Source of the DNA: a virus
Strand: one strand, 5' to 3'
Virus record (IMG/VR): IMGVR_UViG_3300014743_000002
Coordinates: 1-6,275 of that record
DNA: 6,275 bases
The notes under the pieces were generated by a model. The model did not search any database and was not told the DNA's origin. It worked only from the letters and a program-made list of their open reading frames with translations. Positions 1 to 6,275 of the stretch are shown here, one piece after another. How positions within the stretch are numbered: the stretch's first letter is position 1; each line of letters starts with the position of its first letter. Both the position numbers and the translations under genes were made by a program.

Positions 1-99
1 GTATTCACAACCTCATTGATATTAATCACAGAGGACCAACCGCCAATAAAGTGAGCATGATTACCCATGTACTCGGGGGCTTTAATACCAAACCGAGCA
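1..99. repeat. Terminal direct repeat from the assembly overlap of a circular genome; identical to 6177-6275
   Basis: Base-by-base comparison: gtattcacaacctcattgatattaatcacagagg...ccaaaccgagca occurs at 1-99 and again at 6177-6275 (offset 6176). The capsid reading frame stays in phase across the junction. Confidence 0.95.
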
Positions 100-1157
100 G
101 CCATCTGGTCCGAATAGTCCTTACTTGCGAATTGTACTACCTCTTTCCAGCGCTGAAGGTATTCCGTTGCACGAATTGAAAGTGCGGACAAATCGGAATT
201 AAGGCTAAGAGCTTGATTATTCGAAGAGGGTCGAGTAGCCGAAAGCGAAACATCAGAGGTACCACTACCCTTAGCCTGTAGATAAACACCTGAAGAACCA
301 TAAGGAACAATCCGATTTGAAGGCAAAGATGCATCAATTGAACCAAGCACAGCTACCGAACCATACTGACTATTCGGAAGTATACCCATAAAGTAATCTT
401 TCGGATAATTAGCATAACGGAGCTTCAACATATCAACACAAAGAGCGATAGAAGAACCTCCAGTCCAGTAGTCTACATTGTAAGCGTAAGCCAAGTGCTT
501 TTCCCATTGAGAGTTGCTGAAGAAATCGAAATAAACTTTCTGATAAGCAAGGAACGGAAGAGCATTCACAGTCTGAGACAGCTGATAAACAAGCGGATTA
601 ACACCGTCAGACAGATTATCAAGACCTAAATACTTCTTAGTGATAGCGGCTTTTCCTGTATTTGAAGATGCAATCATAGAACCGTAGCCAAGCATATCAA
701 GCAACTTGCATGAACCATAAACCAACGGCAGACCAGCATCATCACGAGTATTGGTCTGGTCATTGGCGTTCGCCGCTTGCAGGTAAGTGCTTAAAAATGC
801 CTGAGAGACATAAGGAACCTGAGTAAGCTGAGGAGTATTCTCACTATTACTAACGGCAGAAGTCATGTAATCAGACATCTGAGTAAACGCCTGCGGTAGA
901 GCACGAGAGATCAAGCGTAACGGCACAGCGTAAAAGTCATAATACTCTTTGATACGAGTATATGCAGCCGTATTGACGGGAACAGTACGAGTAAACCAAT
1001 CGGAAGAAATACGGTACTTACTCCCGGGAATAGCAATCTGCCAATAAACGGGTAAAATCTCACCAACTTTTGCCGTAAACAATTTTTTACTAGACAAGTC
1101 AAAGGAAGAGCGATGTACGGCAATTTTCGCTCGGTCTAGGGGATTAAAATCACTCAT
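1..1157 (-). CDS. VP1: Major capsid protein VP1 (F-like), N-terminal ~385 codons. The ORF runs off the left edge and continues at 6176 by circularity. The full protein is 580 aa (join 1157..1 and 6176..5591).
   Basis: ATG at 1157-1155. Hand translation gives MSDFNPLDRAKIAVHRSSFDLSSKKLFTAKVGEILPVYWQIAIPGSKYRISSDWFTRTVPVNTAAYTRIKEYYDFYAVPLRLISRA... I checked every codon of this frame from 1157 to 2 and found no stop. The FDLS...G.ILPV...PG...TRT.P...EYYDF..VP pattern is the conserved N-terminal signature of non-phiX microvirus capsid proteins. The ORF is missing from the supplied track only because it has no in-window stop. Confidence 0.93.
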   Translation of the reverse strand, partial: MSDFNPLDRAKIAVHRSSFDLSSKKLFTAKVGEILPVYWQIAIPGSKYRISSDWFTRTVPVNTAAYTRIKEYYDFYAVPLRLISRALPQAFTQMSDYMTSAVSNSENTPQLTQVPYVSQAFLSTYLQAANANDQTNTRDDAGLPLVYGSCKLLDMLGYGSMIASSNTGKAAITKKYLGLDNLSDGVNPLVYQLSQTVNALPFLAYQKVYFDFFSNSQWEKHLAYAYNVDYWTGGSSIALCVDMLKLRYANYPKDYFMGILPNSQYGSVAVLGSIDASLPSNRIVPYGSSGVYLQAKGSGTSDVSLSATRPSSNNQALSLNSDLSALSIRATEYLQRWKEVVQFASKDYSDQMAARFGIKAPEYMGNHAHFIGGWSSVININEVVN

Positions 1158-1173
1158 AATCAATTAATTTAAA

Positions 1174-2994
1174 TTAGACCATACGGTTAAATATATTATT
1201 AGCATCATTCAATTTCTTATGCTTAATCATATCGCGGCAGAAGGTAGCAGCACGGAAATCAAGACATTTTTGTAAGTCGCTACTTTGCCCACTATCATAG
1301 GAACTTCTTGTATCGGGTTTCGCGGATTTGATGTAATTACAAGCCGCGAGAGATGGGATTCTGGGGTCATCAAACGGAACGTGTATCTGTTCTTTAATGG
1401 GACGAATAAATCCGTCTGCATATTCTCCGTCTTCTCCGATACCAATGGTCGCCATTTCGCATCCTTCGGCTGGTACATAGAAATACCGAAGCATAGGGGC
1501 TGGCAAAGTCTGTTGTATTCGCAACGAATCACACATTCGTACATAATCCGCTTTCTTTTCATATTCTATTCCAGTTTTGAGGATAAACATAATACGATTG
1601 GCATAAGAATCAAGATTACCACCGATGGGAGGCAGATGCCAATTCCTAAGGAACTTACTGACATAAAGGAATAGCCGATATAACTTATTAATATAAGATT
1701 CAATATCGACATCAGAAGAACTGTTACAGAGCCTAGTAAGGCACCGAGCATTGTGTAATATAATTTCATCTTCATTGGTTAGGCAATGATTTAATGTAAT
1801 ATATCGATAATAAGCACGAACAATAGAAAGGATAGAATCGGAATTATAATCTATAATACCAAATCTTGCGATTCTTTTTGGCGCGCTTGCAACAGCGCGA
1901 ATAATTCTAGCAATCGCAGTAGCATCGTCATAGCGAGCACTTGAGAATCGGGGCAATAAGGTACGGATATACGACATGGGGGGAGTTGATTTAACACTAA
2001 TCCCGTTGAAGTTATAGACTCGTCCATTAATGACAGAATCGATTTTTTTTTCAATCGCGTGATAGACGTCTTCACCTTCCTCAAAAATATCGCCTTTTTC
2101 AAAAAATCCAAGAGACGCTCTTTGTCGGGGTTTAAATGCGCAGCATGCTCGATATAATAAGGGAGCAGAGCTAAGGCTGTTAACGTAACTCGCAACGTAC
2201 GATGAAGCTCCACCTCGGGCAATCTGGAAATCTGAACGACCGAGTTTCCAACTCTTATCATGGCACTGTCGTAATACCTCTGAGATTTCTTTCGAGTTCG
2301 TGAATAATAAGATATGATAATGCGGGCGAAAATGGACTGGTCCGTATTCACCCACAGCGTAGAAGTGTAACGTTTCATAAGAACCTAAAGCTGTTTTTAA
2401 ATGTTTACGCAATCGTTTAATATAGTTCTGAACATCAACATAATTCAGGAAGGGTATAAGGTTACCAAGACCATATTGTTCAGCAGCGGGATATACCGAG
2501 TTGTCAACGGCCTGCGTTTTACGGATAAAACTACGAATAGCATCCATACTAAGAAACCAATTATCCTTAACAGGAACATATTCCTTAATTTCACGGTCAA
2601 ACGGCACTGTGCCTTGAACTTGCGTGAAGAATATATGACGCAAGAGGGAAGAATCCGCAGGTTGATACTCAGAAACAGGTATATAAGAGTGGCGTTCATA
2701 ACCAAAAACTTTATCTCCTGAAATACTTAAAGCATCTTCATACTCACTATGCAGAACCTCACAATTCATCAAAGGAATATGCTCATTATCATAAGTAAGC
2801 GTCACAAAATAAGAATACTTAAAAGCACTTCCTGCGGTCTTCACACGAATGGACGCTTTTTGAGCACGCTTATGAATACAGTAATCGCATTGTCCGCAAT
2901 CTACAGGAATGCGCTGACCTGTGTAACGATTAGTTATAAAAGAGCGATGCTGACAATGGTCAGCAGCCTTAAGTAAATCAGGAGAATATGTCAT
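1174..2994 (-). CDS. VP4: Rolling-circle replication initiation protein (HUH endonuclease; VP4 / phiX174 gene A homologue), 606 aa
   Basis: All three rolling-circle Rep motifs were verified at nucleotide level. Motif 1 is FVTLTY (2791-2808). Motif 2 (HUH) is HYHILLF within EYGPVHFRPHYHILLF (2302-2322). Motif 3 is YVASYVNS (2176-2199), nearly identical to the two-tyrosine active site YVAKYVNK of phiX174 protein A as I recall it. There is also an N-terminal CGQCDYC...R cluster typical of microvirus Reps. Confidence 0.93.
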   Translation of the reverse strand: MTYSPDLLKAADHCQHRSFITNRYTGQRIPVDCGQCDYCIHKRAQKASIRVKTAGSAFKYSYFVTLTYDNEHIPLMNCEVLHSEYEDALSISGDKVFGYERHSYIPVSEYQPADSSLLRHIFFTQVQGTVPFDREIKEYVPVKDNWFLSMDAIRSFIRKTQAVDNSVYPAAEQYGLGNLIPFLNYVDVQNYIKRLRKHLKTALGSYETLHFYAVGEYGPVHFRPHYHILLFTNSKEISEVLRQCHDKSWKLGRSDFQIARGGASSYVASYVNSLSSAPLLYRACCAFKPRQRASLGFFEKGDIFEEGEDVYHAIEKKIDSVINGRVYNFNGISVKSTPPMSYIRTLLPRFSSARYDDATAIARIIRAVASAPKRIARFGIIDYNSDSILSIVRAYYRYITLNHCLTNEDEIILHNARCLTRLCNSSSDVDIESYINKLYRLFLYVSKFLRNWHLPPIGGNLDSYANRIMFILKTGIEYEKKADYVRMCDSLRIQQTLPAPMLRYFYVPAEGCEMATIGIGEDGEYADGFIRPIKEQIHVPFDDPRIPSLAACNYIKSAKPDTRSSYDSGQSSDLQKCLDFRAATFCRDMIKHKKLNDANNIFNRMV

Positions 2995-3305
2995 AAATAT
3001 AATCTTTTATCAATCACTTGGTGACGATTACGCGGACCAAATGAAATATGAATAAAATTATCATAAATAATAAGTTGGTCAAAAGGAGAAAAATGATCAG
3101 AATAATCATAAATCATCTCAAGCAACTTATTAAAACTAGTAGAACCGTAAGGCTTGATATCAATAGCTTCACCCATCAGATGCTGAGAATTAGGAGCGCC
3201 ATTACAAGCCTTATTCTGTTCAGGAGTGCGACGTGCACTAGTCACGACAAAATGAGTATTAGAAAGCAGCAAATACTCAAGAAAATACATAAGAGACTTA
3301 TTCAT
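2991..3305 (-). CDS. Zinc D,D- or L,D-peptidase of the M15/LAS superfamily (putative peptidoglycan hydrolase / endolysin), 104 aa
   Basis: SQHLMGEAID (nt 3159-3188) matches the SxHxxGxAxD motif. Together with FIH (His86) it gives the H-x6-D...H zinc triad (His42, Asp49, His86) of VanX/VanY/M15 phage endolysins. The preceding VVTSARRTPEQN resembles the SGYR...N block of Peptidase_M15_3/4. No signal peptide is visible. Its stop overlaps the Rep ATG (ATGA at 2994-2991). Confidence 0.8.
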   Translation of the reverse strand: MNKSLMYFLEYLLLSNTHFVVTSARRTPEQNKACNGAPNSQHLMGEAIDIKPYGSTSFNKLLEMIYDYSDHFSPFDQLIIYDNFIHISFGPRNRHQVIDKRLYL

Positions 3306-3385
3306 AAACCGATAGAGTTTAGAATATAACCAAGAGCCGCACTAACAGCGCCGATAATAATTTTCCAAATATTATTACTTTTCAT
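3302..3385 (-). CDS. Small single-pass membrane peptide, 27 aa (MKSNNIWKIIIGAVSAALGYILNSIGL); putative holin-like partner of the peptidase
   Basis: It is the C-terminal, non-overlapped part of the listed 74-aa ORF. The internal ATG at 3385-3383 overlaps the last codons of the 64-aa ORF. The TGA stop overlaps the peptidase ATG (ATGA at 3305-3302). It has a charged N-terminus followed by a hydrophobic stretch of about 20 residues. By hand count, 16 of 27 codons end in T, the same third-position bias as the bona fide genes. There is no homology evidence. Confidence 0.45.
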   Translation of the reverse strand: MKSNNIWKIIIGAVSAALGYILNSIGL

Positions 3386-3569
3386 CAGATTGAGATTTAA
3401 GTTCAACGAAATTATTTTCTTCTTTAATTGAATCCACAATAACAATAAGACCCAACGGAGAAACTCGCTCAGAATAATTTCCAAGACCATCCAGAGAATT
3501 GACAATATAAGGCGGCATAACATCACGACCAGTTTGTTTTTCTTTAAGGGAAATAATGAATTTCTGCAT
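3375..3569 (-). CDS. Hypothetical protein, 64 aa, first gene after the intergenic region
   Basis: The ORF runs from ATG 3569 to TAA 3375. Its composition is balanced and slightly acidic (8 K/R against 10 D/E), with T-rich third codon positions like the other genes. It fills the space between the intergenic region and the lysis-like genes. I recognise no motif. Confidence 0.6.
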   Translation of the reverse strand: MQKFIISLKEKQTGRDVMPPYIVNSLDGLGNYSERVSPLGLIVIVDSIKEENNFVELKSQSDEK

Positions 3570-3680
3570 AATTGTAAAATTTTAAATGTTAATAATTTAA
3601 TGAGTTGGTTTCTACAGGGGCAAAGGAAAGCATTATTTTCGAATAAACAAAATATTTCGGAGTTTTTTATTCTACGGTTA
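3570..3680 (-). promoter_or_regulatory. AT-rich region upstream of ORF64; probable promoter for the ORF64-peptide-peptidase-Rep(-VP1) transcription unit
   Basis: The viral-strand sequence ...AAATATTTTGTTTATTCGAAAATAATG...TAAATTATTAACATTTAAAATTTTACAATT-ATG contains TATTTTG (around 3647-3653). This is one base short of the Bacteroides -7 consensus TAnnTTTG. I found no clean -33 TTTG at the right spacing and no Shine-Dalgarno sequence. Confidence 0.3.
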
Positions 3681-3687
3681 GGGTGTG

Positions 3688-3756
3688 AGTTGTGCGTTTA
3701 TAGACGAGGAGGGGGAGAATCCGAGAGGATAACTCGGATTTGCTTCGCACACAACT
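3688..3756. other. Composite stem-loop: an outer stem (3688-3696 pairing with 3746-3756, 2-nt bulge) encloses a purine tract and a perfect 8-bp hairpin (3718-3725 with 3733-3740)
   Basis: aatccgag/aggataa/ctcggatt is a perfect inverted repeat. agttgtgcg pairs with cgcacacaact when c3748 and a3749 are bulged. A 14-nt purine run lies at 3706-3719 (pyrimidine on the viral strand). Confidence 0.6.
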
Positions 3757-3807
3757 AAGGGCTTCGCTTAAATAACAAAGTGGATGTATACAGAGGTGTA
3801 TAGGCAC

Positions 3808-3829
3808 GGCAGGTCAGATAGAACCTGCC
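3808..3829. other. Stem-loop with a 7-bp perfect stem, ggcaggt / 8-nt loop / acctgcc
   Basis: Direct inspection: 3808-3814 is the reverse complement of 3823-3829. Confidence 0.6.
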
Positions 3830-3832
3830 TTT

Positions 3833-3870
3833 GCGCGCCTTCGCGCTAAAATACCGGAGCGGAACGCTCC
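3833..3870. other. Two short GC hairpins: gcgcg-cctt-cgcgc (3833-3846) and ggagcg-gaa-cgctcc (3856-3870)
   Basis: Both are perfect inverted repeats on inspection. On the viral strand the second reads GGAGCG-TTC-CGCTCC followed by GGTATTTTAG, a weak candidate intrinsic terminator after VP2. Confidence 0.5.
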
Positions 3871-3903
3871 TCTAAGGAAGTCGCTCCGCTCCATTTTTCG
3901 ACC

Positions 3904-3954
3904 AGGCCCTACGCGGGCGGCGGGTGTATATCGCTCAAACGCCGCGATGGGCTT
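3904..3954. other. Bipartite GC-clamped stem-loop directly after the VP2 stop, with a 17-nt AT-containing loop
   Basis: The outer stem is 3904-3909 with 3949-3954 (6 bp including one G-T). The inner stem is 3917-3922 with 3940-3945 (6 G-C pairs, gcggcg/cgccgc). The loop 3923-3939 reads ggtgtatatcgctcaaa. Confidence 0.6.
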
Positions 3955-3959
3955 TTAGT

Positions 3960-5138
3960 TTATCTACCGTTATAGATTGTAGTATTACGAGGACCATAAT
4001 CGTTACGAAAGATATTAGCACCAGGGCGAAAAGAGCCAATTACATTACCAGCGCCAGAAGCAATAGAACCAACACCGCGGGCTACAGATTCCCAATAATG
4101 AGTACGGCCTTGTTTACGAGCTAATTCAGCACCATACTCGGTGAGTTTCTGTTGAGCCTTAGCAGTGTTATACTCCACATGCTTACGTAGCTTAACGTTC
4201 TTATAATCATACGTACTATCACGATACACTAATTCATTAGAAGCATTAGTAGCTTTAATCAGAGAGTCAGCAGTTTCCTTAGCTATTCTGTTTTGAATCC
4301 TAAGACCGTTAGTCTCAACAGACAGCTTAACAGCCCTAGCCATCTCAGTTTTATACTGCGCTTCAGTAAGAGCACCTTGTGCAAATAGATTAGCAAGAGT
4401 CTGACCCTTAATGAACAAATCAGCCTGTTGCTGTTCATCAAGATATTTATTCAATATCTGTTGAGCCTGGGAATCAAGTAGAATCTGTGTTTCTTGGGCA
4501 GCAGTAAGACGACCAGCAAACTCCATATTCTTAAGTTCCTGAAATTCCTTAGACTGATCTAATATAGCAGAGCGTCTACCAGTGGAAGCATTCCAATAAC
4601 CTGACTGACCAATACCAATATTACGATAATCCGTATCACCAAGGATCTTATTGATAAGGAATGGAGTAGTAGCTACATTCTGTTCAGCATTCATCATAGC
4701 AGCACGAGCCTGGGCCATAGAAGCAAGAGCGGAACCAATGTCAGAAAAATCAGGGCGAAACGCCTGAACGCTAGGAGGAGGAGCAGCAGAAGCAGCAGCA
4801 CCTCCAGAGGCAGGAGACTTAGAGCCAGCCATAGCGGCAGAACCTTGAACGAACGGATTCAAACCACGAGAGATCATAGCATTGGGAGAATTGTAAGAAT
4901 TATTCATTCCCCACATCTTTTCTTGCCAATTACGCTGAATCTGAGCCTGTTCGGCGTTAAACGCATTATTCTCGCGATTAATGTCAATATTGGTCTGGTT
5001 GGCCTTATTCTGCGCAGAAGAGCCAATCATATTGCCAGCAAGAGAAGCACCAGCAGCAATAATACCACCAAGGACAAGCGGAGCAATACATCTATCATTA
5101 GGAGAGAGCAAGCTCTCTCCAATTTCTAGAAACCTCAT
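3960..5138 (-). CDS. VP2: Minor capsid / DNA pilot protein (VP2; functional analogue of phiX174 H), 392 aa
   Basis: It has an N-terminal Gly/Ala-rich hydrophobic segment (APLVLGGIIAAGASLAGNMIG). This is followed by the N...FN...A...R.WQE.M......NP block seen in microvirus VP2 proteins (NAFNAEQAQIQRNWQEKMW...RGLNPF). An Ala/Ser/Pro linker (SPASGGAAASAAPPPS) and a long Q/A/L-rich helical C-terminal half fit a pilot-protein coiled coil. The start ATG overlaps the upstream stop (ATGA at 5138-5135). Confidence 0.8.
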   Translation of the reverse strand: MRFLEIGESLLSPNDRCIAPLVLGGIIAAGASLAGNMIGSSAQNKANQTNIDINRENNAFNAEQAQIQRNWQEKMWGMNNSYNSPNAMISRGLNPFVQGSAAMAGSKSPASGGAAASAAPPPSVQAFRPDFSDIGSALASMAQARAAMMNAEQNVATTPFLINKILGDTDYRNIGIGQSGYWNASTGRRSAILDQSKEFQELKNMEFAGRLTAAQETQILLDSQAQQILNKYLDEQQQADLFIKGQTLANLFAQGALTEAQYKTEMARAVKLSVETNGLRIQNRIAKETADSLIKATNASNELVYRDSTYDYKNVKLRKHVEYNTAKAQQKLTEYGAELARKQGRTHYWESVARGVGSIASGAGNVIGSFRPGANIFRNDYGPRNTTIYNGR

Positions 5139-5578
5139 TGTGCACTAGCGGCAGGGGCGGACGCATCAGGAGCGGGCGCTGCACTTTGCTCTGCCAACAT
5201 AGACTTAGCAAACTCAGTCAATTCTGAATGTTGAGAAGCTAACTCAGACAATACAGCCTGACGTTCAGACATTGTTTGACAATGACGGGAAACAACACAA
5301 TTAAATCGTTCTTCATCCGTCATACCATCCATAACAGTAGACTGAGTAGGATGCATCTGGGCAAGAATATTCTGAACATTCATATCACCAAGCAAACGAC
5401 GATACTTTTCCTGATTCAAAAGGATCTGAGTCATATCACATTGAATCAAATCACCGTCAGGAGTCTCATCATACATAACCGGATCATAAGCAGAAGCCTG
5501 ATAACACGGGTTGCCTTCAACCAATTGAGGTTGATAAGTATCCGGAATAATTTCAGGGGTAAAATCAAATCTTCTCAT
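5135..5578 (-). CDS. Hypothetical acidic protein, 147 aa, possibly an internal scaffolding protein (VP3-like) judged from position, size and charge only
   Basis: The ORF starts 12 nt after the VP1 stop and is coupled to VP2 by an ATGA overlap. It is rich in D/E and ends in an Ala/Pro tail (AAPAPDASAPAASAQ). Its size is similar to gokushovirus VP3 (about 150 aa). No diagnostic motif, so the function is inferred. Confidence 0.55.
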   Translation of the reverse strand: MRRFDFTPEIIPDTYQPQLVEGNPCYQASAYDPVMYDETPDGDLIQCDMTQILLNQEKYRRLLGDMNVQNILAQMHPTQSTVMDGMTDEERFNCVVSRHCQTMSERQAVLSELASQHSELTEFAKSMLAEQSAAPAPDASAPAASAQ

Positions 5579-5590
5579 AACGACATATAA

Positions 5591-6275
5591 TTAATAAGGT
5601 AAACCATTTCGATCCAAGTTCTGAACAGCATATACTTGGAAGTTAACATTACACAACAGTTGGTCAAAAGCAACAGAACAATTCGCAGCATCAACCTGCG
5701 GAACGAATATAGAGTTCAGTTGTTGAGGACGAACCTTCATAGACTGATAAGACCAAGCACCAGAGCCAGTTAAGACCTGATAACCATTCAATGGAGAAGC
5801 CCAAGACTGATAAGCAGTACCTTTACGGAAACCGGCATGAACGGTATCAATACTAGATTTCCATTGCCAGTAACGAAGATTATATCCAAGACTATTACCA
5901 GTAACCACCTTCAAACCGGGGTTATTCTGGAGATTCAAAGCAGGGACGACTTGCATACCTAACTGATCGAATGCTGGTTCCGGGAAGTCAGAAATAGAGG
6001 TAACAGTCAACTGAGGAGCTTGACCTGTCAAATCCCAATCGAGTAAAGGCACGGCATGATAAACGCAGATAATTACCTGATGCTCGGCACCACAATCATA
6101 GGTTAGAGTATGACCAGAATTAGAGGATACGCCTTTACCAGCTATACTAGCCTGAGAATTATCGGTATCCAAATTGGTATTCACAACCTCATTGATATTA
6201 ATCACAGAGGACCAACCGCCAATAAAGTGAGCATGATTACCCATGTACTCGGGGGCTTTAATACCAAACCGAGCA
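5591..6275 (-). CDS. VP1: Major capsid protein VP1, C-terminal part. Bases 6177-6275 duplicate 1-99; the unique part is 5591-6176.
   Basis: The frame of the listed 217-aa ORF (5591-6244) stays open up to the window edge (...ARFGIKAPEYMGNHAHFIGGW...) and is in phase with the 1..1157 segment: 1157 + 586 = 1743 nt = 581 codons including the stop. The TAA stop is at 5593-5591. ARFG....PEY.G is a typical microvirus capsid motif. Confidence 0.93.
   Translation of the reverse strand, partial: ARFGIKAPEYMGNHAHFIGGWSSVININEVVNTNLDTDNSQASIAGKGVSSNSGHTLTYDCGAEHQVIICVYHAVPLLDWDLTGQAPQLTVTSISDFPEPAFDQLGMQVVPALNLQNNPGLKVVTGNSLGYNLRYWQWKSSIDTVHAGFRKGTAYQSWASPLNGYQVLTGSGAWSYQSMKVRPQQLNSIFVPQVDAANCSVAFDQLLCNVNFQVYAVQNLDRNGLPY
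6177..6275. repeat. Second copy of the terminal redundancy (equals 1-99). The unit genome length is 6176 nt.
   Basis: Same comparison as for 1-99. The repeat lies inside the capsid ORF, which fits a linearisation artefact and not a biological repeat. Confidence 0.95.

Follow-up and report, generated by a model that had tools for sequence, protein, structure and literature searches.

Tailed phages encode holin-endolysin cassettes, in some of which the holin is a small protein with two transmembrane (TM) segments, such as the pinholin S21 68 of phage 21. Among microviruses, the E protein of phiX174, which has one N-terminal TM segment and is encoded within D in its +1 frame, acts without a muralytic enzyme. 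The phiX174 group is the only one for which a microviral lysis mechanism has been worked out, and the very abundant microviruses of the gut lie outside it. Here we examine a candidate for such a mechanism on the minus strand of a 6,275-nucleotide (nt) stretch of viral DNA (IMG/VR record IMGVR_UViG_3300014743_000002, positions 1 to 6,275; hereafter the window). The locus lies between orf64, a conserved gene for an acidic 64-amino-acid (aa) protein, and the replication-initiator gene Rep (VP4), and it consists of a 104-aa peptidase gene preceded by a hydrophobic open reading frame (ORF) of 27 codons, which is probably the end of a 73-aa membrane-protein gene overprinted on orf64. It offers a testable candidate for gut-microvirus lysis that is conserved in more than 120 distinct genomes.

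Peptidases of the M15_3 type have been described in human-gut Alpavirinae, including genes inserted between VP2 and VP4, and a role as endolysins has been proposed for them; five of the 11 such genes adjoin an ORF given as 'unknown' (Roux et al., 2012; PMC3394797). Peptidases are likewise listed among lysis-associated accessory genes in a later survey, which explicitly omitted overprinted genes from its analysis (Kirchberger et al., 2022; PMC9239249), and horizontal acquisition of the peptidase genes has already been proposed (PMC3394797; PMC9239249). The peptidase gene of the window resembles those of the Alpavirinae in its family (PF08291), in its VP2/VP4 insertion site and in belonging to a gut microvirus. 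In contrast to what we report here, these two surveys, which list the peptidase and leave out overprinted genes, describe no conserved membrane ORF, no overprinting and no peptidase-less sisters that keep the membrane gene, and searches of the literature turned up no account of the membrane ORF. What appears to be new here is the conserved, probably overprinted membrane gene; the M15 peptidase of microviruses was already known, and any novelty attached to it in the preliminary description of this DNA, made from the letters of the window, is pre-empted by these publications.

The locus can be set beside three kinds of lysis genes. Like the S21 68-type cassettes, it has a small membrane gene directly upstream of, and coupled to, the gene of a muralytic enzyme, and its predicted membrane protein recalls the S21 68-type holins in a length of ~70 aa, in a Gly/Ala/Ser-rich TM helix with a small-residue face and in possible alternative starts. 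Unlike those holins, to which it shows no sequence homology, it has no charged C-terminal tail and likely has both ends in the periplasm; and unlike those cassettes, the gene is overprinted and is kept in genomes without the endolysin, and there is no spanin. With phiX174 E it has in common that a microviral membrane protein is encoded in the +1 frame of another gene, having probably arisen de novo, and that, in relatives without the peptidase, no other candidate for lysis is evident. It differs from E in that there is no homology between the two, in that its conserved TM segment is C-terminal and not overlapped, and in that most genomes add a coupled endolysin. For the 27-aa form, the nearest precedent in size is LysM (Sgl-M) of the single-stranded RNA phage M, a 37-residue MurJ inhibitor (PMC12506998) and likewise a very short lysis peptide with a single TM segment. 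LysM differs in coming from an unrelated virus group, in lacking homology and in having no partner enzyme.

The small ORF and the frame that extends it upstream

The 27-aa ORF encodes MKSNNIWKIIIGAVSAALGYILNSIGL, in which the 19-residue Kyte-Doolittle window over residues 9-27 has a mean of 1.89. The preliminary description had reported this ORF, the 104-aa ORF with its SQHLMGEAID and FIH motifs, an ATGA overlap on either side of the peptidase gene and T at 16 of the 27 third codon positions of the small ORF, all of which we recover at the positions given, on the minus strand; the other genes have 45-65% T at this position. Relatives were collected as 63 viral contigs found by peptidase similarity (52-94% protein identity). 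The conserved small hydrophobic ORF 5' of the peptidase that had been anticipated is present in 65 of the 65 peptidase loci with upstream DNA, counting the window and three GenBank relatives, so that no close relative keeping the peptidase has it absent or interrupted. Over its 22 non-overlapped codons, synonymous diversity (pS) is 0.42 and nonsynonymous diversity (pN) 0.047, giving a pN/pS of 0.11 (60 distinct nucleotide sequences); its Ser codons alternate between AGY and TCN and its Leu codons between CTN and TTR, and thirteen residues are invariant. The start is ATG in 125 of 127 distinct sequences and GTG in the remaining two. Since the orf64 codon that supplies the 'AT' of this ATG varies between GAT, AAT, CAT and TAT, and is never xAC, the constraint lies on the start codon or on the Met itself and not on orf64. 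The ATGA overlap of the small ORF with the peptidase gene is kept in nearly all peptidase-bearing relatives, while peptidase and Rep are 2-5 nt apart in most of them, with no overlap there. Microvirus mar56, with only 52% peptidase identity, has a recognizable homologue of the small ORF in the same position, and bajarodmic virus 1134 and contig L066 (47-52% peptidase identity) have a divergent small ORF (MKSETKSKIWSAIIAAAVS...) in the same arrangement. Judged by this pattern of substitution and conservation, the small ORF is a real gene. The possibility that the TM segment is joined to the peptidase by frameshifting was considered and rejected, since the last four codons offer no slippery site and since, in most relatives, the peptidase frame is closed by a stop 15 nt before the peptidase ATG.

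Four independent signals indicate that the frame of the small ORF is under selection well upstream of its ATG. In the window, orf64 has no stops in the +1 frame against 4.6 expected by synonymous resampling (P=0.0015), a procedure under which VP1, VP2, Rep, the peptidase and the 147-aa gene all fit expectation. We then counted, over 125 distinct relatives, the sites at which a synonymous codon would create a +1 stop. From orf64 codon 16 to the end, stop-creating codons occupy three of 1651 such at-risk sites (0.2%); the share is 6.4% in codons 1-15 of orf64, and it rises to 17.5% for Rep, 19% for the small ORF and 31.5% for the peptidase. Across 91 genomes, pS is 0.243 in orf64 codons 16-54, whereas codons 1-15 of that gene, the small ORF, the peptidase and Rep have values of 0.40-0.49. 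Individual codons point the same way: at codon 19 of orf64, where Pro, Ser and Ala alternate, 123 of 125 sequences have G as the third base and so keep an Arg in the other frame; all 125 have GAT as codon 16, which in 122 of them provides an ATG in that frame; 124 of 125 use GGA for Gly30, whose counterpart there is Glu or Asp; and G-ending codons for Leu39 and Val45 preserve two Trp residues. Entropy at codon position 1 of the overlapped stretch (0.425) is close to that at position 3 (0.471), whereas in single-coding regions position 3 exceeds position 1 by a factor of 1.7 to 3.6. The signal of dual coding starts at the conserved ATG at 3523, with a GTG one codon further upstream at 3526, and 118 of 121 distinct long ORFs are intact, 92 being exactly 73 aa and 26 being 72-83 aa through indels in the linker. 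These statistics ignore phylogeny; T/C turnover is abundant at the same sites, so that many independent substitutions avoided stops. Our initial verdict on the 74-aa frame, that it was a by-product of T-rich third positions (pN/pS 0.80, two broken genomes), was overturned by these null models.

The frame thus probably remains under selection for 46 codons upstream of the small ORF, and because it is kept open and constrained over that length, the product would be an overprinted membrane protein of 73 aa, within the size range of holins. The 'unusually small membrane component' envisaged from the window alone accordingly gives way to a longer protein. The predicted product, MLCRLILSILWMVLEIILSEFLRWVLLLLWIQLKKKIISLNLNLNLMKSNNIWKIIIGAVSAALGYILNSIGL, has a hydrophobic N-terminal part of ~30 residues with conserved R4, E15, E20, R23, W24 and W30, a basic KKK loop, a variable linker of Leu, Asn and Lys, and an invariant C-terminal helix; hydropathy windows of at least 1.6 span residues 1-31 and 55-73. 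At 100 degrees per residue, Gly58, Ala62, Gly65, Asn69 and Gly72 fall on one face of the C-terminal helix, and a face of such small residues and Asn would be of the type associated with the packing of TM helices. The basic central loop suggests that both ends of the protein lie in the periplasm, and the conserved internal Met47 may serve as a second start giving the 27-aa product. Among called genes, the 73-aa ORF appears in 157 protein clusters, all from microvirus-sized contigs and all unnamed or spuriously named; as a rule gene callers report the 64-aa ORF and pass over the membrane gene, so that annotation of the clade could be improved. In five loci (L012, L014, L061, L062 and L064) there are short tandem duplications, such as FVELKTQADE-FVKLKTQADEK, at the 3' end of orf64, a stretch that doubles as the linker of the membrane ORF. 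They lengthen both of the overlapping proteins, and two of these genomes, L014 and L061, are among the three with an interrupted long frame.

The M15 peptidase and relatives that lack it

The identification of the 104-aa ORF as an M15/LAS peptidase, made earlier from its motifs, has held up in both profile and fold comparisons. The protein scores 40.9 bits against Pfam PF08291 (Peptidase_M15_3; E=2.5e-10), above the curated cut-off of 23.2, and matches PHROG 894, 'endolysin', with 4.9e-16. It has the motif SxHxxGxAxD (H-x6-D) in the form SQHLMGEAID and a distal His in FIH; in alignments of 50 and 61 diverse homologues the predicted zinc ligands H42, D49 and H86 are invariant, as are S23, R26, N31, G36, S40, G45, A47, D76, Q77, S88 and R94. 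Searches of the PDB sequences with the single peptidase or a shallow profile gave no match, and a deeper profile was needed. This profile matches 1lbu, the zinc D-Ala-D-Ala carboxypeptidase of Streptomyces albus G, with E=7.6e-12, SQHLMGEAID aligning with SRHMYGHAAD, and more weakly the hedgehog N-domains and phage L-alanyl-D-glutamate peptidases, all members of the LAS group. An AlphaFold2 (AF2) model from a deep alignment has a mean predicted local distance difference test (pLDDT) score of 94.6, and in Foldseek its best PDB match is again 1lbu (probability 1.0, root-mean-square deviation 2.3 A over 83 columns); other matches are VanY, the LysB4 endolysin, LdcB, the RB49 peptidase and Sonic hedgehog, and among viral structures in BFVD the M15A peptidases of tailed phages and other microviruses. 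It replaced a first AF2 model, based on an alignment of sequences of at least 80% identity, whose active-site loop was unreliable and whose Foldseek matches were meaningless. In sequence and modelled fold, then, the protein is a peptidase of the M15/LAS family, and its catalytic activity is predicted.

The protein shares SxHxxGxAxD and the distal His with 1lbu and with endolysins of the LAS fold (LysB4, the T5 and RB49 L-alanyl-D-glutamate peptidases, Ply500). Unlike typical LAS homologues of 130-150 aa, it lacks the ~45-residue N-terminal segment and has no cell-wall-binding domain, making it a minimal version of the fold. There is no signal peptide, as had been noticed from the sequence, nor any other hydrophobic window or TM segment, and its N-terminal helix belongs to the folded domain. 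Homologues in cultured Bacteroides and Stenotrophomonas phages are annotated as endolysins. In two contigs of Bacteroides-type double-stranded DNA (dsDNA) phages, L173 and L175, the next gene after the peptidase homologue encodes a u-spanin-like product that has a lipoprotein signal and ends in a C-terminal TM segment, and a Phage_holin_4_1 gene lies nearby. M15A domains are also found in tail and tape-measure proteins of tailed phages.

In bajarodmic viruses 388 (L179, 904-1440) and 470 (L180, 925-1434), the peptidase ORF has an in-frame hydrophobic N-terminal extension, possibly a signal anchor, which stands in the place of the separate upstream membrane ORF. These extensions in two other microvirus lineages suggest that the M15 enzymes of microviruses need a membrane device.

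A scan of viral contigs with a degenerate DNA pattern for the core of the peptide returned 105 further loci, of which 95 have the peptidase directly after the membrane ORF. One of these, the IMG/VR contig L161, has its peptidase cut to 65 aa by a premature stop next to an intact membrane ORF, which is either a natural knockout or a sequencing error. In the remaining ten loci (L067, L099, L102, L113, L119, L121, L133, L141, L147 and L171), a spacer of 52-60 nt separates the membrane ORF from Rep, which comes next. Searches with tblastn found no peptidase in any of these ten genomes, three of which are complete, given their terminal repeats. They share a homologous AT-rich spacer (TTGATTTTATT...GCCnnTTCAGGCTCTTGGTTAT) that is unrelated to the peptidase sequence, and a slightly different C-terminus of the membrane protein (LSAIGV), with Ser instead of Asn at residue 69 in nine of the ten and Val instead of Leu at residue 73 in nine of the ten, the exception at the latter being L119, which ends in Gly. 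In all nine loci for which the fetched DNA includes the start of orf64, the long ORF is intact and has the same conserved residues. In a neighbor-joining tree of Rep the ten genomes are scattered among peptidase-bearing ones. We rejected independent deletions of the peptidase on account of the one common spacer. The empty allele is more likely a loss or replacement spread by recombination, since the distant mar56, bajarodmic virus 1134 and L066 hold a peptidase at the same site. The peptidase is dispensable in at least some settings, being absent from ten natural relatives and truncated in L161; and as the membrane gene stays intact in the peptidase-less relatives, it would be the core component, with an activity of its own, and the enzyme an accessory.

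The preliminary description had suggested that the phage uses, or has captured, a two-component lysis cassette of the dsDNA-phage type. What survives is the pairing of a coupled, conserved membrane ORF with an M15 enzyme; a strict role of the membrane protein as holin partner of the enzyme sits uneasily with a gene that is conserved without it. Nor does capture as a unit stand: the membrane gene is overprinted on a resident gene, is confined to this clade, occurs only in microvirus-sized contigs and is intact in peptidase-less genomes, and the lysis cassettes of dsDNA phages with homologous peptidases hold no such peptide. As far as can be read from the sequences, the membrane gene is home-grown and the peptidase alone is foreign-looking, and the pair was not captured as a cassette. 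In a genome of 6 kb, the locus provides a clean example of gene birth by overprinting beside a rare horizontal acquisition.

One contig places the module in other company: in L172 (Logan SRR29466483, 24.7 kb), the stretch at 9878-12226 matches the window with 85% identity and comprises no more than the membrane ORF, the peptidase and a complete Rep, and the genes around it, for a dUTPase, a D5_N primase, Bro-N and T5orf172, are dsDNA-phage-like. Either the assembly is chimeric here or a tailed phage has captured a fragment of a microvirus.

A proposed lysis module and its alternatives

We lean, with modest confidence, toward reading the locus as a two-gene lysis module of mixed origin, in which a holin-like membrane protein is joined by an accessory endolysin. 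The first gene would yield a membrane protein of ~73 aa whose first 46 codons are overprinted and whose last 27 specify the conserved TM helix; the second, horizontally acquired and coupled to the first through ATGA, would yield a minimal cytoplasmic peptidase of the M15/LAS type. The membrane protein would accumulate and oligomerize in the inner membrane through its small-residue/Asn face, and the envelope would then be permeabilized or otherwise compromised by it. The signal-less peptidase could thereby reach the peptidoglycan and cut its cross-links. In the enzyme-free genomes the membrane protein would have to suffice, with an activity like that of a single-gene lysis protein, and the enzyme would be an accessory that probably speeds or secures lysis. 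A broader claim, that Alpavirinae-like gut microviruses lyse their hosts by a de novo overprinted protein that is sufficient alone and mostly accompanied by a recruited, coupled endolysin, is a tentative generalization that we would not be surprised to see fail. If a de novo protein has indeed recruited an endolysin, in hosts presumed to be Bacteroidota, the locus would represent a naturally occurring intermediate step between lysis by a single gene and lysis by holin and endolysin, and its one frame might yield both a long (73-aa) and a short (27-aa) product; its natural variants with and without the enzyme provide a ready-made comparison.

Several observations weigh against a holin-like protein acting in such a module. 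The ten loci in which the membrane ORF leads to Rep through a spacer speak against a strict dependence of holin and endolysin, and the conservation of the membrane gene without the enzyme weakens a strict holin-partner role. Neither the 27-aa nor the 74-aa form has a match in Pfam or PHROG, holin families included, and the protein ends within its TM helix (...YILNSIGL), without the charged hydrophilic C-terminal tail typical of holins. L014, L061 and one further sequence, out of 121 distinct ones, have a broken long frame; three of 125 have no ATG at residue 1; and the N-terminal hydrophobicity follows in part automatically from the T-rich third positions of orf64. As to the host, Rep-based and small-ORF-based scans of the GTDB genomes found no prophage copy.

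The same peptidase-less genomes raise the question of whether the membrane protein lyses the cell by itself, blocking a step of peptidoglycan-precursor synthesis or triggering host autolysins in the manner of phiX174 E or LysM, with the peptidase as a dispensable booster set free only when the cell fails. The ten genomes with their common 'empty-site' spacer, scattered as they are among peptidase-bearing Rep lineages, favor this, as do the overprinting of the gene in the +1 frame of another gene, the existence of short single-TM lysis proteins (LysM has 37 residues; PMC12506998) and the lack of any other evident candidate for lysis in genomes without the peptidase. We nevertheless regard a wholly stand-alone protein as unlikely, for the ATGA coupling is kept across lineages whose peptidases are only 47-94% identical, and a cytoplasmic muralytic enzyme would be of little benefit without a membrane lesion; moreover, there is no sequence similarity to known single-gene lysis proteins, and no target suggests itself. 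The independence of the membrane gene from the peptidase and its lack of homology to holins would equally suit a function apart from lysis, such as superinfection exclusion, entry, or the membrane anchoring of replication or assembly; the membrane gene would then adjoin the peptidase only because insertions are tolerated at the junction upstream of Rep. That appears quite unlikely to us: the membrane ORF and the peptidase have kept their start/stop overlap, an enzyme without a signal must somehow cross the membrane, in other microvirus lineages a hydrophobic segment is part of the peptidase itself, and a lytic microvirus needs a lysis gene, for which no other candidate is evident.

Two further alternatives concern what is made from the locus and when it acts. 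Production of the 27-aa peptide alone, with the open frame upstream as a side effect of codon usage or of a constraint on the nucleic acid, would be in keeping with the internal ATG in 125 of 127 sequences, with three distinct sequences that have an upstream stop and keep the 27-aa ORF, with a +1 frame that is hydrophobic by default given T-rich third positions, and with a simple pN/pS of 0.80 for the overlapped frame. We give it little credence in view of the ~100-fold depletion of +1 stops from orf64 codon 16 to the end, with no comparable depletion in Rep, the peptidase or the small ORF, a loss of stops that starts at the conserved ATG; the halving of synonymous diversity in exactly that stretch; the entropy pattern across codon positions, which is that of dual coding; and the retention of Arg4, Glu15, Glu20, Trp24 and Trp30 through rare codons while the orf64 residue varies (Pro, Ser or Ala at codon 19). 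Hardly credible, finally, is a peptidase that travels in the virion and digests peptidoglycan at infection. M15A domains in the tail and tape-measure proteins of tailed phages would favor such an entry enzyme, but the small stand-alone homologues nearest to the peptidase are located in lysis cassettes, natural relatives can do without the enzyme, and we know of no precedent for packaged enzymes in the T=1 capsids of microviruses.

Genome setting

The ends of the window carry an exact direct repeat of 99 nt (1-99 and 6177-6275), and since this marks an assembly overlap, the window represents a circular microvirus genome of ~6176 nt, every gene of which is on the minus strand (Table 1). Its size of ~6.2 kb, the gene order VP1-VP2-VP4 and its relatives from mammalian guts show the genome to be Alpavirinae-like, and the gokushovirus-type frame in which it had at first been placed does not apply. 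Rep matches Pfam PF23343 (1.7e-16) and PHROG 942 (3e-35). The nearest GenBank records are fecal microviruses of lemurs, dogs and humans with 74-87% nucleotide identity, in which the 104-aa gene is annotated as 'peptidase' and orf64 as 'hypothetical protein', and the small ORF is unannotated. The orf64 protein, which has no Pfam or PHROG match, is kept in all relatives with a pN/pS of 0.23-0.40.

Table 1. Genes and other features of the window and their positions
Feature	Coordinates	Strand	Remarks
VP1	wraps window ends	-	580 aa
147-aa ORF	5135-5578	-	
VP2 pilot protein	3960-5138	-	
Structured intergenic region between VP2 and orf64	3570-3959	-	390 nt
orf64	3375-3569	-	Conserved 64-aa acidic protein; codons 16-64 double as overprinted frame
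Probable 73-aa membrane-protein gene	3302-3523	-	+1 frame of orf64; ATG at 3523
27-codon hydrophobic ORF	3302-3385	-	Residues 47-73 of the long ORF; not overlapped; internal ATG
ATGA overlap, membrane ORF stop and peptidase start	3302-3305	-	Junction TTATGAAT
M15_3/LAS zinc peptidase, candidate endolysin	2991-3305	-	104 aa
ATGA overlap, peptidase stop and Rep start	2991-2994	-	Junction TTATGACA
Rep (VP4), replication initiator	1174-2994	-	606 aa; downstream end of the coupled chain

Rep itself contains alternative-frame ORFs on the minus strand (1851-2378, 1227-1562 and 2445-2705), which lie in the +1 frame and reach up to 175 aa. Rep has 17 stops in this frame, in line with the 19.3 expected, so that there is no sign of overprinting in this gene.

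Scans for the Bacteroides promoter consensus, sigma-70 promoters and terminators and against Rfam had no decisive outcome, and the 390-nt region between VP2 and orf64 has no Rfam match. The 5' half of this region is GC-rich, and as single-stranded DNA the region is predicted to be strongly structured (z = -5.3), with no shuffled sequence folding as well. It may be an origin, packaging or terminator region; a GC hairpin plus a T-run lies at 3870-3856 within this non-coding stretch.

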